A program made the translations under genes and the position numbers. Below are positions 9,069 to 63,497 of a stretch of 64,000 nucleotides of DNA, piece by piece. This stretch comes from a bacterium. GTDB lineage: Bacteria > UBA8248. Position 1 is the first letter of the stretch. Each line of letters begins with the position of its first letter. The notes beneath the pieces were generated by a model, which was not told where the DNA came from, ran no database searches, and was given only the letters and a program-made list of their open reading frames with translations. Where the stretch lies: the NCBI GenBank assembly GCA_965202625.1, contig CBDBBI010000010.1, forward strand, positions 384,001-448,000. Direction: 5' to 3'.

Positions 9069-10064
9069 TTAATTTGCCGGCGTCCCCACAGTCTCTTTGT
9101 CGTCTAAAAACGAATTGGCTGCCATCCATTCGTCAGAGAATATCTTACTGAGATAAAACATGCCGGAATCAGGCAACAAGGTGATGATTTTCTCAGGTTT
9201 GTCGAGGGATCGCGCGTATTTAAGAGCACCCATGACCGCTCCACCCGCCGATCCACCTGCCAGGATGCCTTCTTCTCTCGATAGCTTTCGCGCCATCAAG
9301 AGCGATTCCTTGTCGGTGACCTGTACGACTTCGTCGACGTTGTCAAAACTAAGTGTCTTGGGTTTGAAACTTTCCCCAATTCCCTCCGTCTTGTAGGATT
9401 CAGCCTTGGGATCTATTTCGCCATGGAATAGACCGTATAGAATCGAGCCGATGGGGTCCACGCCGATAATTTTGACGCGAGGATTTAGTTCTTTTAAGAA
9501 TTTTCCGATGCCCGAGATGGTGCCGCCGGTGCCTAGACCGGTGACGAAAGCGTCAAAATCGCCTCCCGTTTGCTTCCAAATCTCGGGGCCCGTCGTGCGG
9601 TAGTGGGACTCCGGGTTGTTGGGGTTGTTGTATTGGTTCGCCAAAATGGAATTGGGTGTCTCTTCCACAATTCCGCGCGCGACACAGTAATGGCTTCTCG
9701 GGTCGTCTAGAGCTACCGTCGGTGTTACGATAACTTGTGCGCCATATGCGCGTAGCCTGTCGATTTTCTCCTGACTCATCTTGTCGGGCATCACGAAAAT
9801 GCACTTATAGCCTTTGACGGCTGCAACCATGGCGAGTCCGGCACCCGTGTTTCCGGAGGTGGCCTCGACGATCGTTCCGCCTGGTTTGAGTTCCCCTTTG
9901 CTCTCTGCGTCTTGGACGATCAGCGGCGCGATACGATCTTTTACCGATAATCCGGGGTTCATATATTCCACTTTGACGAACATTTTTGATTTCACGTCAG
10001 AGCCGATTGCGTTGAGCCTTACGATTGGCGTGTCGCCAATGGTTTCTAAAATGTTTCTCTTCAT
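9069..10064 (-). CDS. Cystathionine beta-synthase / cysteine synthase family
   Basis: NPGLSVKDR, EATSGNTG, GTGGT, PDKMSQEK. Confidence 0.92.
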   Translation of the reverse strand: MKRNILETIGDTPIVRLNAIGSDVKSKMFVKVEYMNPGLSVKDRIAPLIVQDAESKGELKPGGTIVEATSGNTGAGLAMVAAVKGYKCIFVMPDKMSQEKIDRLRAYGAQVIVTPTVALDDPRSHYCVARGIVEETPNSILANQYNNPNNPESHYRTTGPEIWKQTGGDFDAFVTGLGTGGTISGIGKFLKELNPRVKIIGVDPIGSILYGLFHGEIDPKAESYKTEGIGESFKPKTLSFDNVDEVVQVTDKESLLMARKLSREEGILAGGSAGGAVMGALKYARSLDKPEKIITLLPDSGMFYLSKIFSDEWMAANSFLDDKETVGTPAN

Positions 10065-56740: not shown

Positions 56741-59131
56741 ATGACAGTCGAGAACAGCAAGATTGTTGAAGCGATAAAGGATTGGGCGCGTCGCTTATGG
56801 CGTCGAATAACGAGCTCAACTCCCGAGGAAGAGGATGACTCGCGCAATCCGCCAGATGGAACTGGTGAACCCGAATCACAAAATGCGCCAACAAGACGCG
56901 AACCGGAGCGAGAACCACCAGACGCGCGTTCCGGCGATATCGATCCTATAGATGATACCGATCCTGTAATGACTCGCCCCGAACCTGAACCCCTCGTTTG
57001 CGATGCGGGTGATGGGCAAGACGGCCTGCCTCGACCACCCGACCCACCACCGCCTGAGACTTCTGAGCCTACAGGCAATGCCCCAACGGGGGAGGGTGAA
57101 GAATCAACGGAACCTACGCTAAAGGCCTCAAGCGAGATTGGGGGGGAGGGAAAACGCAATGGGACTTCGACGAAAAATCCCCAGAAGATATCAGAAGATA
57201 ACAACGAAATGGATCGCAAATTCACGCCTCGCCCAGAGATCATTTGCCGAAATCTCCGCGGGCATTGGAAAGTGTTTCTGTCCGTAGATGACGAATGCGG
57301 CGTCAAGGAGGTGCGGCACAGCGGCGGCGAAACTTTGCCCGTGTCGGACGGCGAATATCCCCTCCCGTCCTTAGCCGGAAGCTTGTCTGTCGTCCTTGAG
57401 GACGATGGGCATAGTGAATTGATAGTTCCTTTGTTTGACGGCAAACCCCTCATCTTCAAGTTGCAGGAGGATTGGACCGGCGACGGACACAAGGTCGAAC
57501 GCATCACGAAGGGGTACTTCGTCGTCATCGCGCCGAACACCTGGACGCGCACGGGGCGCATTCGCGTGGAGTCGCAAGAGTGCGTAGATCCAAACTTCAA
57601 AGCGCACTATTTCTTTCAGCAACCAGGTGAAGCAGAGGCGGACGTGGGCGGCTTTAAGGAATACTCCGGGCCGTTGTTCGCCAATTCTTCCCTTACGCTC
57701 AAGGGCGAGCGCGTTTTTGACGACTCTGATGAAGGGGAGCTGTTCATAGGCGCCGTTCCAGAGTTGACTCCCTCGCAGGAAATCGCCTGGGTAAGGGTTG
57801 GCGAAGAACGGACGGGCGGCTGGAAGGGCGATAGCTACAGGCCGGACGAGAAAACTCTCGCTGACGTGCTGAACGACCGGCAAGGGCGGTTTTATGTCCG
57901 CGTTTACGGCAACGAGTCGAAGAAGATGGTGGATAGCGATCAGTTTCGCTATCTACAAAGTCTCAAAGAGATTCGTGTAAACGATGAGCTATATACGAAA
58001 GACGTGATTCTTGCGCCGCCTCCTGCAGGGTATCCTCCGACAGAGGTGTGCTTTGTCGGCGTCGATGGCGCGCCCATTCGCCCCATCTTGCCGTCCGAAG
58101 CAGCGCACGTGAAAGTGCTAGGGAGCGATCTCATCGTGGATCCGGTTCCGTGCAGCGACAACATATCGTGCGTGCTGGAGTCCGACACCGGTCGCGTCGA
58201 TATCGTCTTGAATCTGCCGCGCATCTGGTGGCGGATGGCGCGAGGCGGTGAGGAAGCCGATGAATGGCGAGATACCCCCCTGACGATGACGCGACAGGAA
58301 TATCGTGCGAATGCGGAGGCGGAAGCGGCAATTCATTTGCGTCTGCCGCGAAAAATCAAGTCGGTTCTCGTGGGTTTCGGGGATGAGGGGGATCGATCAT
58401 ACCGCCAGAAAAAGACGGGAGACGACATCGCGATTCCACTGATGAATTTCGCCGATTATACGCAGATTGACGAGCGGCTGAAACAGGACGCCTTGTTTAA
58501 CGCCCGATATGGCGAGGTAGATTGGACGCTTGTCAGGGTTTTTGCCGACCCCGCGCCGAGGATCGTCTCCTTCGAGTCGGAACCAGGGAAGATTGCGGTC
58601 GGAGGGACGGCGACGTTGCGTTGGGCGACCAAGAACGCGGAGGCTTGCGGCGTTCAGATCGATTCCGGAATCGGGGCGGTCGAACCTAACGGGAGTCGTG
58701 AGGTTGCGCCCTTGAAGAACACAACCTACACGCTGAGGTTGACGGCTCCCTATGTGGATAAGGTGATGGGAACTGTTCATGTGACCGTCAGCGTGCAGGA
58801 GTCGGGCACGACACCACCTGTCGTCACAACGGTGGACTATATGGCCGCGTCAACGACTTATGACGAAATGTTTGAAGAGGCGCTTGATGTCGTCAAGAAT
58901 CGCTTTTTACTCTCGGTGCTGCTCGCCAAGCGGGTGGCACAACTGCGGCAGGGGGCGGAGCCCCTGGTCGCCGCGCAGCCGAGGGACACGCAGCCGAGGG
59001 AGACGCATGAGCAGATCGTGTTCCGGGAAATTATCGAGGAGAAGCTGGAGTGGCGAAAGACCGCCTCGGCGGCTGACTTTTCCGACATGGACCACGGGTT
59101 TGCGGACGAGGGGTTCGACGACGGAGAGTAG
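56741..59131 (+). CDS. Multidomain partner of DUF1998 helicase: disordered N-terminus, beta-rich core, Ig-like domain, C-terminal RNA polymerase omega-like domain
   Basis: Single 796-aa ORF; last ~96 aa EEALDVVKNRFLLSVLLAKRVAQLRQGAEPLV...IVFREIIEEKL match RpoZ. Confidence 0.8.
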   Translation: MTVENSKIVEAIKDWARRLWRRITSSTPEEEDDSRNPPDGTGEPESQNAPTRREPEREPPDARSGDIDPIDDTDPVMTRPEPEPLVCDAGDGQDGLPRPPDPPPPETSEPTGNAPTGEGEESTEPTLKASSEIGGEGKRNGTSTKNPQKISEDNNEMDRKFTPRPEIICRNLRGHWKVFLSVDDECGVKEVRHSGGETLPVSDGEYPLPSLAGSLSVVLEDDGHSELIVPLFDGKPLIFKLQEDWTGDGHKVERITKGYFVVIAPNTWTRTGRIRVESQECVDPNFKAHYFFQQPGEAEADVGGFKEYSGPLFANSSLTLKGERVFDDSDEGELFIGAVPELTPSQEIAWVRVGEERTGGWKGDSYRPDEKTLADVLNDRQGRFYVRVYGNESKKMVDSDQFRYLQSLKEIRVNDELYTKDVILAPPPAGYPPTEVCFVGVDGAPIRPILPSEAAHVKVLGSDLIVDPVPCSDNISCVLESDTGRVDIVLNLPRIWWRMARGGEEADEWRDTPLTMTRQEYRANAEAEAAIHLRLPRKIKSVLVGFGDEGDRSYRQKKTGDDIAIPLMNFADYTQIDERLKQDALFNARYGEVDWTLVRVFADPAPRIVSFESEPGKIAVGGTATLRWATKNAEACGVQIDSGIGAVEPNGSREVAPLKNTTYTLRLTAPYVDKVMGTVHVTVSVQESGTTPPVVTTVDYMAASTTYDEMFEEALDVVKNRFLLSVLLAKRVAQLRQGAEPLVAAQPRDTQPRETHEQIVFREIIEEKLEWRKTASAADFSDMDHGFADEGFDDGE
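58841..59131 (+). other. rpoZ: RNA polymerase omega (RpoZ) domain, in frame with the upstream ORF; possible internal start
   Basis: NRF.L....AKR..QL..GA.PLV and REI..KL motifs, acidic tail; ATG at 58841 preceded by GGTGGA. Confidence 0.8.
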
Positions 59132-59144
59132 CCTCTCCCCCCTC

Positions 59145-59234
59145 CGTGCGCGTCAGTTGACGCCCATCGACAAACGCCGTCGCAGTGCACACCAGCGCAA
59201 CATAGAGATGCTTGGGAGGTTGATGGATGCCTGA
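59145..59234 (+). pseudogene. Out-of-frame remnant resembling the C-terminal half of ribosomal protein L13e
   Basis: RARQLTPIDKRRRSAHQRNIEMLGRLMDA* versus the L13e pattern A..LGIPVD.RR.S.H..NVE.L; stop overlaps the helicase ATG. Confidence 0.6.
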
Positions 59235-62200
59235 CGCCAACGACATGCAAACCATACAAACCTGGCCCGAAAAAATTCGACAACGTTACGAGAACTATTT
59301 GATAACCTCCTTTTTTTTTTCAAAGAGCCAAAATTGCGGGAATCGTTCCAGGCGGCTCTTCAAGAAGAGGGGAATCTTTTGAAAGGCCCATGCACCGAAA
59401 CGGACCGGGGCTTCAAGACCGGCTCAAGCGCGAGGGCATTGGCAAAGGGATGTTTTCCGGACGAGAGCGAAGGTATTCTCCCTGCACTGATCGATGCCCC
59501 CTTGTATTCGCATCAGGAAGGAGCCATTCGCGCCGCGCATATCGACGCCCGGAACGTCGTCGTCGCCACTGGTACCGCCAGCGGCAAAACGGAGAGTTTT
59601 CTCTACCCGATCCTTTTCGAGTTGTATCGCCAGCATCTCTTTGGGGAACTCGAAGAGCCAGGCGTGCGTGCGATGATCCTGTATCCAATGAATGCGCTCG
59701 CCAACGATCAGCGCGAGCGTCTGGGCAAAATCTGCAAGCATTTGCGCGATGCAAATTCGGCGTTCGCGCCGACGTTCGGACAATACATTGGGCAGACGCC
59801 CGAATCCGCTACGGACCGTTGGCGCAATGCCGCCGAGCGGGCGAAAGAACGCCTGCCCGGAGAACTCGTATTCCGCGACGAAATGCGAAAGAAGCCGCCC
59901 CATATTTTGCTGACGAACTACTCCATGCTGGAATATCTGCTTATTCGCCCCGACGACAGCCCTTTGTTCGACGATGGCCGCGGCGCGCGCTGGCAATTTA
60001 TCGTGCTTGACGAGGCGCACCAGTATCGCGGCGCCAAAGGCATGGAGATGGGTATGCTCCTCCGGCGCCTCAAGCAGCGGCTGCGCGACGGAGGACGGCA
60101 AGGTTCGTTCCGCTGCATCGCCACCAGCGCGACCATTTCCTCTGGCGAAAGCGATAAAGACAGGCGAGTTGTCGCCGAATTCGCGCAGGAGCTGTTCGGA
60201 GAACCCTTCCAGTCGGCTGGCGTTATTTTTGGCGATACACGGCCGGAAGCCACTGATTGTCCTCCACGCCGCTATCATGCCTTTTTGCGCGCTCTTGAAG
60301 GGGCGTTTCTCGTTCACAGGGACGGCGCGGATGCTGTCGTGCTCAATCGGAAGAGCGAAACTGAGAACGGGTCAAACGCGAAGCCGTTGGAAATCGCCCT
60401 GTGCCGTGAATGCGGCCAGTATTACTACGTTGGTCAGGAGCGAGACGGAAATCTGGGAGAAGCCGTCCGAGACCCCAGTCAACCCGACTTTGGCGTGGAC
60501 TATTACCTGGCAGCGAAGGATGGAGACAAGTGGCTGTGCAGGCTCTGCGGCGCGCTTTCAAAATCCACGTCGAGTTGTGATTGCGGCCCGGAGGTTCGCG
60601 TGAAGGTGAAGAAGTGCAAGAGTCACAAAGGGCACCCCGACCAACTGAAGGAATGCGAGACCTGCGGTTATCAACGCGGCGGCATCGGCGATCCGGTGCA
60701 GGAGATCGTGCATGGCTCCGACGGGCCCAACGCCGTCATCGCTACCGCCCTGCACGAATTGCTGCCGGAAGACAAACGCAAGGTGCTTGCCTTCGCCGAC
60801 AGCCGGCAAGAGGCAGCGTTCTTTGCCTGGTATGCCGAGGACTCCTACGAGAAGCTGCGCGACCGCAACCTCATGTTGCGGGCGATCAAGGCGGGAAAAG
60901 TCGTCCCGGAAGGCCTGTCTATCGACGATCTCCGAAACCGGCTGCACAAAGAGTGGGAGCAGGCTGGTCTGTTCAGGGAGACGGATTCGTCGGAAGGGCG
61001 AGACCGACGGGTGCTGACGTCAATTCTGCGCGAGGCGCTGACGGACGAAAGGCGGCTGTCCTTGAGTGGTGTTGGCCTGGTCAGGTGGTTCGTCAGGATT
61101 CCCGACAAGTTGCATTTGCCGGAAGCCATGCGAGAACCGCCATGGAAATTCACGAATGCCGAGGCGCGGCATCTGATCGGGTATCTCCTGGACGAGTTGC
61201 GCCTGCGCCGCGCCATGGACTTGCCGAAAGGTGCCGCAACGCCTGCATGGGGCGACGTATTGCCTCAACGGCCGCAGCAGGCTTACGGCAGCGGGTCGCC
61301 GGGCAAGCGACCGAACGTCTCTGAATGGGGCAGCCCTCAATCCGCAGTCATCCGACATTTCCTTCACCGGTTGCTTGATGACAGCGGCCTGTCTGAAGAA
61401 GGGAAGCAATCGGCGTCGAGGAAACTCATGAAGGACGTGTGGAAAAAGCTACGGAGTTATTGCGGCGAAACCATCCTTTCGTGCGGACGTGTGAACGGTA
61501 CGTTTCGGCTTGATCCGCGCTGGCTGCGGCTCAAGCCGGTTGCGCCTGGCGAAATCTGGGAGTGCGACACCTGCGCGACCTTGAGCGCTCACTACGTTCG
61601 CGCCGTCTGCCCCCGGAATCGTTGTCCCGGAACCCTGGTGCCCGCCGACGGAAGGCGCCTCGAGAAAAACCACTATCGCATCCTCTACGAAAGCGATGCT
61701 TTTCCTCCCGCTCTGAGGGCGGAGGAGCACACTGCACAGATCGACAGCGACGCGGCGCGCCAAAGGCAGAACGAGTTCAAGAATGGCAAGATCCATCTTC
61801 TCAGCTCTTCCACTACGTTTGAAGTCGGCGTCGATTTGGGGGATCTGAAAGTCGTGTTTCTCCGCAACGTGCCGCCGGAGCCGTTCAACTACACCCAGCG
61901 CGTCGGACGCGCGGGGCGAAGAGAGACTGGCTTGGCGCTGACCTACTGCCGCCGCAATCCACACGACTTATATTACTACGAAGATCCGGGGCGCATAATT
62001 GACGGCGCGGTGCATCCGCCGCGCCTGCGGATGAAGAACGAGAAAATCATCCTGCGGCACCTTGTCGCCACGGCCCTCTCCGCGTTCTTCAGGAAAAACG
62101 TTAGAGCGCGCTTCACCAAAGTAGAAGAATTTGTGAAAGACTGGTCGAGCCCCCGCGCCGCGTCCGATCTCAAGGAGTTTTGCGAGCGCAACAGCGAGTT

Positions 62201-63497
62201 GACGGATTCACTCCGCCAAATCGTTCCGAAGGACATGCGCGAACGAGCGGGGCTCAAGGATGACGCCTGGATTGAGAACGTCGCGGGACCAAAGAGTCGG
62301 CTCGCCAAGGCGGAGGCGGAAGTATGCGCAGATTACAAAGAGATGTCGAAGACTAAGGATACTCTCATCAAGGAGCAGCCTTCCAGGTGGACTGACAAAG
62401 TCAAACAACTGCAAAAACGTATGAAAACCATCGCCGGCGAACAAACCTTGAATTTCCTCTCACGCAAGGCCGTCATACCGAAATACGGGTTTCCGGTCGA
62501 CGTCGTCGAACTCGATACTCGGCCCGAATACGGCAACCGGACGGGCGTCACGCTCCAGAGAGATTTGTCCCAGGCTATCGCTGAATACGCGCCGGGCGGG
62601 AAGGTGGTGGCCAACAAACAAGAGTGGGAATCATGCGGCGTGAAGGTGGTGCCCGGAAAGGCATGGCCAGTCCGACGTTATCAATACGATGACGCCCGCA
62701 ATTTTGCGCAATGGAATGAAGGTGATCCATCCAGCTCGCACAAGCGCCTGGGGAATATGCAAGCTTATGGGAAATACTTGATCCCGGAGTTTGGTTTCGT
62801 AACGCCGTTGTTCAAGAAGCCCGAGAAGCCGAGCCGGCGAGCGCAACGATTGTACACAACCCGGCCGTTCTTTGGAGGCTTCGCTAACGACCCTCGTCTC
62901 GAAACTAAGACAATCCTCGGCGTCCAAATCACTAAAGCGGTGCCTGGTACCCTGGTCATATTATGCGAGGGCAAGAACAGGGAAGGCTTCTATATCTGCC
63001 GTTCGTGCGGCGCCCACATGACAGCGAAGAAAGCCGAGCACAAATCCCCCTCGGGTTCCGAATGTCGAGGCACCTTGGAACGCTTCTCGCTTGGGCACGA
63101 ACTGGTCACGGATGTGGTGCGCTTGCAGTTTCCGGGACTGCGTGACGAATGGAAGGCCTATTCCGTCGCCTACGCTGTCCTGCTCGGCGCGGCGAAGGCG
63201 CTGGACGTTCCGGATATGGACCTGAACGTGACGATTACGGGCGGCGGCGATTCGGATGCGTCCGCGATCGTGCTCTACGACAACGTGCCTGGCGGAGCCG
63301 GACTGGTGGAGCAACTGGAGCGGGAGAGCGTCTTCAGAGAGACGCTTCAAAACGCGCGCGCGCGGGTGGAGGGCAACTGTGGCTGCGACGCAAGCTGTTA
63401 CGGCTGCCTGCGCAGCTACCGCAACCAATTCGCGCATCCGCATCTGGATCGAGAGCAAGCGTTGCAAGCGTTGGAATCCCAACTCGCGCACGCATGA
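59227..63497 (+). CDS. DEAD/DEAH-box SF2 helicase with C-terminal DUF1998 (DruE/MrfA-like); frameshifted at T10 59311-59320
   Basis: ATGTASGKTE, LYPMNALANDQ, DEAH, TSAT, FADSRQ, STTFEVGVD, QRVGRAGRR, CGCDASCYGCL; GGAGGT RBS before ATG 59227; main ORF 59334-63497. Confidence 0.9.

Follow-up and report, generated by a model that had tools for sequence, protein, structure and literature searches.

An omega subunit at the C-terminus of a helicase partner

The window analyzed here is a stretch of 64,000 nucleotides (C10:384001-448000; contig CBDBBI010000010.1) from a metagenome-assembled genome (MAG) of the bacterial lineage UBA8248 (GCA_965202625.1; 3.09 Mb, 10 contigs, 4.69% contamination). It holds a two-gene operon in which a partner gene precedes a gene for a DruE/YprA-like helicase, and the partner ends in a copy of the RNA polymerase omega subunit (RpoZ). 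The chimeric partner gene (56741..59131, +) is a single uninterrupted open reading frame (ORF) of 796 amino acids, comprising an N-terminal helix and disordered region, an all-beta core, a linker, and omega as its last 96 residues. The omega coding part (58841..59131, +; 96 aa plus stop) lies in the partner's frame and has its own ATG. It exceeds the 26-bit cut-off of RNA_pol_Rpb6 (PF01192), with 37.4 bits when the 96 residues are scored alone and 32.9 bits when the full-length protein is scored. Scores for the omega part fall under the cut-offs of two NCBI models, at 48.4 bits for NF001579 (cut-off 58) and 15.3 for TIGR00690 (cut-off 23.6). An earlier note, made from the sequence alone, had described an RpoZ-like segment with its own ATG joined in frame to the C-terminus of a helicase partner. 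This description holds, and a real, complete omega is fused in frame to the partner. The note had also pointed to the internal start, and a Shine-Dalgarno (SD)-like GGTGGA is indeed retained upstream of this ATG (58841).

The omega segment has a close counterpart in the same genome. A profile search of the genome returned exactly two RNA_pol_Rpb6 matches, both at 37.8 bits; the second (C10:1176069-1176236, minus strand) is on the same contig, 733 kb from the fusion. It belongs to a stand-alone 96-aa gene (L002 1417..1707, -), the separate rpoZ that the earlier note had proposed to look for, and its protein is 100% identical to the omega of the fusion. By blastn, the segment at 58830..59140 (+), which comprises the SD region, the coding sequence, and a few bases of 3′ flank, is copied from this rpoZ locus, with 97.7% identity over 311 bases, no gaps, and 7 differing positions. 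The likeness ends ~11 bases before the ATG and 6-9 bases past the stop. Four of the differences fall in the coding sequence, all of them synonymous, and two bases differ in the SD region. The stand-alone allele found in an RNA run (X7) differs from the fusion copy at a single position (58909), so most differences between the two genomic copies may reflect polymorphism in the stand-alone gene. We had considered selection acting on the fusion copy, as 4 of 4 differences are synonymous (neutral chance 0.013 if all are transitions), and dropped it given the X7 allele. Stand-alone omegas of the same genus, found in 19 of 22 genomes, are only 75-83% identical, which indicates that the copy comes from this species itself. 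Around the stand-alone rpoZ (G000:C10:1174569-1177736, L002), no gmk lies alongside within 3.2 kb; its neighbors are a gene for a DUF1844 protein before rpoZ, a cysteine-rich ORF, and an ABC permease.

What the segment displaced can still be read at both of its ends. Homologues of the partner usually end in a tail resembling ribosomal protein eL13, and a hidden Markov model (HMM) built from 178 family tails fits the frame of the window ORF up to profile position 73, which lies at the start of the 17-residue linker SVQESGTTPPVVTTVDY (residues 684-700; 58790..58840, +). Downstream of omega, in a different frame, lies an untranslated remnant of the 3′ half of an eL13-like tail, ..PIDKRRRSAHQRNIEMLGRLMDA (59148..59234, +), with its TGA stop at 59232-59234. 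This remnant corresponds to tail HMM positions 107-138 (35.1 bits, E 3.2e-12), a match to the family HMM and not directly to Pfam. Profile positions 74-106, some 33 codons that hold the GGGW...GKGFS...ELxxAGL part, are gone, and the rpoZ segment stands in their place. Because the remnant follows and these positions are missing, the fusion is a replacement within an existing tail rather than an addition to a complete protein. We also considered the linker as an out-of-frame reading of the old GGGW motif and rejected it, as the tail HMM had no support in the other two frames. The sequence evidence points to a genuine gene capture that took place very recently. The signs of recency are the four synonymous differences from the genome's own gene, the single difference from the X7 allele, and the intact remnant. 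The fusion is neither an old nor a designed architecture: a near-identical host copy, recently inserted, destroyed the usual eL13-like tail and left a remnant of it behind.

Both junctions, which the earlier note had regarded as possible sites of misassembly, were checked in Logan contigs rather than raw reads. In X1, possibly the source sample, both junctions are spanned; in X6, from another study, only the upstream junction is. X1 records 1 (58000-58866) and 3 (59095-60000) together cross both junctions with 0 other letters. Record 1 runs 37 letters past 58830 and only 26 past the ATG; record 3 joins the fusion-specific base 59125 to the helicase flank, and a separate X1 record (record 4) has the stand-alone flank. 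The upstream junction is crossed by X6 record 12 (58788-58979). In X4, a single contig carries the stand-alone rpoZ together with the flanks native to it on either side; record 7 of this run, which ends 13 letters past 58830, was not counted as bridging. X4 and X6 have no contig on 59139-59488, which leaves X1 as the only run that bridges the downstream junction. The only RNA contig, from X7, has the stand-alone 3′ flank, and presence in an RNA library is no proof of transcription.

The partner family, its variable tail, and the helicase

Ahead of its tail, the partner has two parts. Residues 1-159 (56741..57217, +) comprise a conserved helix at 4-24, followed by a low-complexity stretch rich in proline and glutamate. 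The AlphaFold2 model, which rests on 35 sequences, places this helix and gives a per-residue confidence (pLDDT) below 50 for residues 25-157. Within the helix, W15 and I8 are almost invariant in our alignment A3. Residues 160-683 (57218..58789, +) form the conserved all-beta core, predicted as several immunoglobulin (Ig)-like sandwiches with pLDDT mostly 85-98. The last sandwich (605-683) is a repeat type common to giant multi-Ig proteins; in one of these, P0125, 47 stretches matched residues 605-674. Foldseek searches of the PDB with the core returned only generic multi-Ig proteins as best matches, and no DruH structure was among the matches listed. No PADLOC family matches the partner, and neither the partner nor searches with P0001, P0004, and P0014 gave a DruH profile even at E ≤ 10. 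As a separate observation, X4 and X6 contigs differ from the window within the core at 58178 and 58541 (E480K and F601L).

Homologues align from residue ~6 to 683, with 160-683 as the conserved core. Among 8000 scored candidates, 180 matched at E ≤ 0.001. A representative library of clusters at 50% identity gave 4341 matches at E ≤ 0.001 and 420 at E ≤ 1e-30; many of the weak matches have in common with the partner only the last Ig-like repeat. No relatives of the partner were found in viral contigs. The family N-terminus is variable too, because P0069 has a DUF4389 domain there (residues 64-137, 73.2 bits). The chimera itself has not turned up a second time among proteins: its exact sequence is absent from a collection of 15 billion proteins, and residues 684-796 match no other protein of 437-1393 aa. 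The same fusion elsewhere, which the earlier note had thought worth searching for, was therefore not found among long proteins of that size range.

The tail was typed in those homologues, 201 in all, that align through to the last residues of the core. An eL13-like tail is present in 169 of them (157 recognized by motif pattern and 12 by eye); it is ~50-70 aa long, with a basic domain of ~50 aa, and carries the motif GKGFS...ELxxAGL...IDKRRRSxH..N. The same tail occurs in 29 of 33 related genome loci, the others having a K/R-rich tail (one), no tail (one), or no usable information (two). Six loci came from JGI metagenome contigs; five have the eL13-like tail, and the sixth (L049) ends before it. 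The Pfam family Ribosomal_L13e (PF01294) is a precomputed label on 24 of 120 proteins among the matches listed. Tested directly, all of 8 homologues match it at E ≤ 0.1, with 4 over the 24.9-bit cut-off and 4 below. A profile from alignment A3 matched the eL13 chain 9e6q_AH at E 3.3e-5, and eL13 chains occupied 55 of the 56 remaining rows.

The rest of the census divides into a K/R-rich helical tail (6 homologues), a second uncharacterized type (11), two further types with 3 each, one ribosomal protein S17, one ribosomal protein S5, 4 singletons, 2 unrelated giant Ig proteins, and one protein cut short. Six other tail types were scanned against Pfam, with no match better than E 0.09. Sequence searches of the PDB with P0196, P0169, and P0023 returned nothing useful, and an Atlas search with the tail of P0075 returned no usable match. 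One locus, L030, seems to record a further exchange. Its partner, which has a K/R-rich tail, stops 75 bases before the helicase start (9584-9660), and by eye the gap seems to hold the end of a decayed eL13-like tail (..ADATRRMIP...TIRRLMDD), whose stop codon overlaps the ATG of the helicase, although this piece receives no score from the tail HMM. Sequences of the relatives thus show the tail position to be a variable slot and a hot spot for swaps.

Downstream of the remnant, the helicase is listed as an ORF of 1387 aa from a TTG (59334..63497, +). Pfam finds DEAD (66.7 bits), Helicase_C (42.6), and MZB (49.7; residues 1279-1359), and PADLOC assigns DruE1 (1.7e-156) and DruE3 (1.8e-148), far above DrmA and DpdJ. 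No nuclease domain was found in the Pfam scan, and the protein ends 28 residues past MZB (1359 of 1387). The native start lies farther upstream, at ATG 59227, where an SD-like GGGAGG (59214..59219, +), identified by reading the sequence, precedes it by 7 bases and the start overlaps the stop of the remnant as ATGCCTGA. Reading from this ATG gives MPDANDMQTIQTWPEKIRQRYENYLITSFFF, which matches the helicase N-termini of related loci. This frame covers 31 codons (59227..59321, +) and then breaks in a run of ten T residues (T10; 59312-59321); T8 or T11 would keep the frame. At the equivalent SFFF/SFYF codons, the T run never exceeds 5 in 32 related loci (31 of L013-L045 plus L004). The X1 contig has the same T10, with 0 gaps. 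The frameshift may reflect genuine inactivation of the gene, a tract subject to phase variation, or a sequencing error in the homopolymer. An N-terminal strand is reported to insert into RecA2 in all YprA homologues (Bell et al. 2025, 10.1101/2025.09.15.676423), so loss of the helicase N-terminus would be unlikely to be harmless.

The operon arrangement is well kept among 33 related loci (L013-L045) from MAGs. Helicase sequence directly follows the partner in 32 of the 33, the exception being L038, where the contig runs out. The helicases terminate shortly past MZB. In 26 of 33 loci there is one helicase ORF of 1399-1500 aa; a contig end cuts the helicase in one locus, and in five it is split or truncated. 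These five are L016, L019, L021, L041, and L045, with the partner also affected in L021 and L045, and either decay or assembly errors may account for them. In 14 of 33 loci the partner stop and the helicase start overlap by 8 bases, an arrangement that the remnant in the window keeps. The G+C content of the operon (0.56-0.60) is no different from that of its flanks. Genomes carrying the system include MAGs labeled Limisphaerales, Latescibacterota, Binatia, Acidobacteria-type, and Alpha- and Gammaproteobacteria, as well as Rhodothermales, SAR202, Poribacteria, Spirochaetia, and Gemmatimonadetes; a few are labeled with sponge-associated groups. This scatter over many distant groups suggests horizontal spread. 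Among 40 genomes related to that of the window, a single one (G007) has a homologue of the partner.

Readings of the chimera

The reading we favor, to which we give about an even chance, is a fresh capture into the variable tail slot that is neutral or mildly disruptive. A copy of the genome's own rpoZ, ~311 bp long, replaced ~33 codons in the middle of the eL13-like domain of an Ig-rich, DruH-like partner gene. By chance the 5′ junction is in frame, leaving the partner to end in a complete omega and to use the stop of omega. The 3′ half of the old tail stays untranslated and still provides the SD sequence and start codon of the helicase. By analogy with E. coli DruH, which binds single-stranded DNA (ssDNA), the ancestral tail may have been a small basic nucleic-acid-binding module. 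The omega tail has a net charge of -10, and 12 other scored tails range from 0 to +17. Acidic omega could hardly take over that role, and the chimera is therefore most probably a young intermediate, neutral or mildly disruptive in effect, in an operon whose helicase also appears to be frameshifted; it is less likely to be an RNA polymerase tether that has become established. The internal start may also yield free omega.

Several observations weigh against so passive a history. The first group concerns what else has entered the slot. P0059 (665-752) ends in a complete S17 (104.9 bits), 70 of 72 residues of which (97%) are identical to a stand-alone 92-aa S17 (P0260) and 78 of 87 to another; judged by this identity, S17 was captured independently and just as recently as omega. 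P0130 (692-812) ends in the N- and C-domains of S5 (30.9 and 68.4 bits), which look diverged from typical S5 when the sequence is read by eye. The S17 and S5 forms are each a single-member cluster from metagenome contigs. The tails of P0129 and P0196 give two weak leads to S6 (Atlas score 0.76; PF01250 at 15.8 bits against a cut-off of 27). The three captures identified (omega, S17, and S5) each consist of a small subunit, complete in itself, of the machinery for transcription or translation, a pattern that random insertion fits poorly and that suggests selection or a mechanism favoring highly expressed genes. The K/R-rich replacement tail occurs in 6 protein clusters as well as in L030, so replacement tails can persist. 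A second group concerns the chimera itself. The fusion is in frame, its core deviates in 1 of 68 highly conserved columns, no more than the cores of relatives do, and its upstream junction is present in the sample of a second study (X6). The helicase frameshift could also be a homopolymer error or be bypassed by slippage. Finally, N-terminal omega fusions succeed in E. coli two-hybrid assays, according to PMC3325213.

These observations favor an adaptive tail swap, which we entertain only tentatively. Here, the slot would be a sensor or adaptor module, and omega would dock the partner, and through it the helicase, on the beta-prime subunit of RNA polymerase, or would serve as a decoy for phage factors aimed at beta-prime or omega; either version would link the activity of the helicase to the transcription of invading DNA. 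The identity of the omega part to host omega implies that the surface binding beta-prime should be intact, and engineered precedents exist for the layout (PMC3325213). The S17 tail with its near-identical stand-alone counterpart, the S5 tail, and perhaps an S6-like one occupy the same slot in other lineages; persistence of K/R tails, an in-frame junction with a conserved core, and the recurrence in a second study likewise speak for a working swap. DruH is also called a likely infection sensor or host-protein scaffold in 2026 preprints. Several points pull the other way. To our knowledge, bacteria have no eL13, so the slot, whose usual tail is eL13-like, would not generally hold a copy of a host component. 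S17, S5, and eL13 are basic RNA binders and could therefore replace a nucleic-acid-binding tail, whereas acidic omega could not. The event is very recent, was not found elsewhere, left a remnant behind, and adjoins a frameshifted helicase. We know of no phage factor that targets omega, and the chimera would compete with free omega from the stand-alone gene.

A broader proposal, which we regard as doubtful, is that the slot acts as a bait or tether that has repeatedly captured near-identical copies of small host subunits of transcription and translation (omega, S17, S5, and perhaps S6), with the eL13-like tail as an old capture. Were it true, the captured tails would bring a Druantia-like helicase to RNA polymerase or ribosomes, or would detect phage factors directed against these machines. 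It would then be a bacterial counterpart of integrated decoys, with the omega chimera as its newest allele.

Alternatively, the junction may matter little and the segment may be an extra omega gene, translated mainly from the internal ATG at 58841 via GGTGGA, a case we consider improbable. The partner would then be made without a useful tail, or the in-frame junction would be meaningless. The copy does start ~11 bases before the ATG, with the SD-like motif at the spacing of the stand-alone gene, and holds the complete coding sequence with its own stop. However, the frame runs without a stop from the partner into omega, and any ribosome that translates the partner has to continue into omega; two bases of the SD region differ from the stand-alone copy; and the RNA contig from X7 has the stand-alone flank. 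Last, misplacement of the rpoZ segment through a repeat is highly improbable: the genome is a 10-contig MAG with 4.69% contamination, the segment is a two-copy repeat, and the evidence consists of contigs that bridge the downstream junction only in what may be the source sample, but such an artefact would require two precise joints 311 bases apart within an operon. The two copies share a single contig and can be told apart at 7 positions, and contigs from two studies cross the upstream junction, with X1 also tying base 59125 to the helicase flank.

Under the favored reading of a recent, neutral or mildly disruptive capture, the locus still presents a domain swap in progress, in which the donor gene, both junctions, and the untranslated remnant remain readable. 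If the omega tail works, it would be, within the literature searched, the first natural defense protein built from a core RNA polymerase subunit, and it would offer a direct handle on what the poorly understood DruH-type partners sense. Beyond this single gene, the analysis outlines a large two-gene family with at least 420 clusters (50% identity, E ≤ 1e-30) across many bacterial phyla, for which we found no description, and whose variable tail includes ribosomal proteins.

Comparison with known systems

The usual tail of the family resembles only part of ribosomal protein eL13. It aligns, as through the family HMM does the remnant in the window, to the conserved core of eL13, at positions ~56-104 of the 180 in Ribosomal_L13e and residues 19-67 of 9e6q_AH, and thus covers only ~45-50 residues, about a quarter of the model. 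The family tail also sits in bacterial defense-type operons, not in ribosomes.

Engineered omega fusions for bacterial one- and two-hybrid systems are reportedly the work of Dove and Hochschild (1998). The earlier note had mentioned such fusions, and their use is borne out by E. coli two-hybrid assays that place proteins on the omega N-terminus (PMC3325213). The layout is the same as in the chimera, in which a short linker connects a protein to a complete omega at its N-terminus. Unlike these laboratory constructs in E. coli, the fusion in the window is natural, coexists with a gene for free omega, and is only a candidate for assembly into RNA polymerase. In line with the earlier note, which knew of no described system with this fusion, our literature searches found no description of one; nor did they find Druantia partners described with tails of ribosomal-protein type. 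The words ribosomal, L13e, omega, and DruH are likewise absent from the main text of Bell et al. 2025, and the variable C-terminal slot goes unmentioned in the main texts searched.

Plant NLR proteins offer a further point of comparison. In integrated decoys, an immune protein bears an additional domain, copied from a host protein, at a variable position. Read as decoys, the omega and S17 tails would be similar to this arrangement, although the commonest tail of the family, the eL13-like one, is no bacterial host protein.

By helicase and gene order, the two-gene system fits a Druantia III-B-like assignment, with a partner that appears DruH-like in architecture only. As in Druantia III-B, the operon has two genes, with the partner first and a YprA/MrfA-like helicase with MZB (DUF1998) second. 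The Druantia III-like branch is described as most often lacking a nuclease domain (Bell et al. 2025, 10.1101/2025.09.15.676423), and III-B is presented as the subtype that combines a compact DruE without PLD domains with DruH (10.64898/2026.05.13.724758). The helicase of the window is likewise compact, with no nuclease domain detected. E. coli DruH is reported to bind ssDNA and to be built from a globular domain at the N-terminus, six Ig-like subdomains, and a further domain at the C-terminus (10.64898/2026.05.12.722862); richness in Ig-like domains would be common to it and the modeled partner. The partner differs from Druantia DruH in having no PADLOC DruH match and in the shorter length of its family members, about 550-950 aa. 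The variable C-terminal slot, usually eL13-like and here filled by omega, is a feature of the window's own family.

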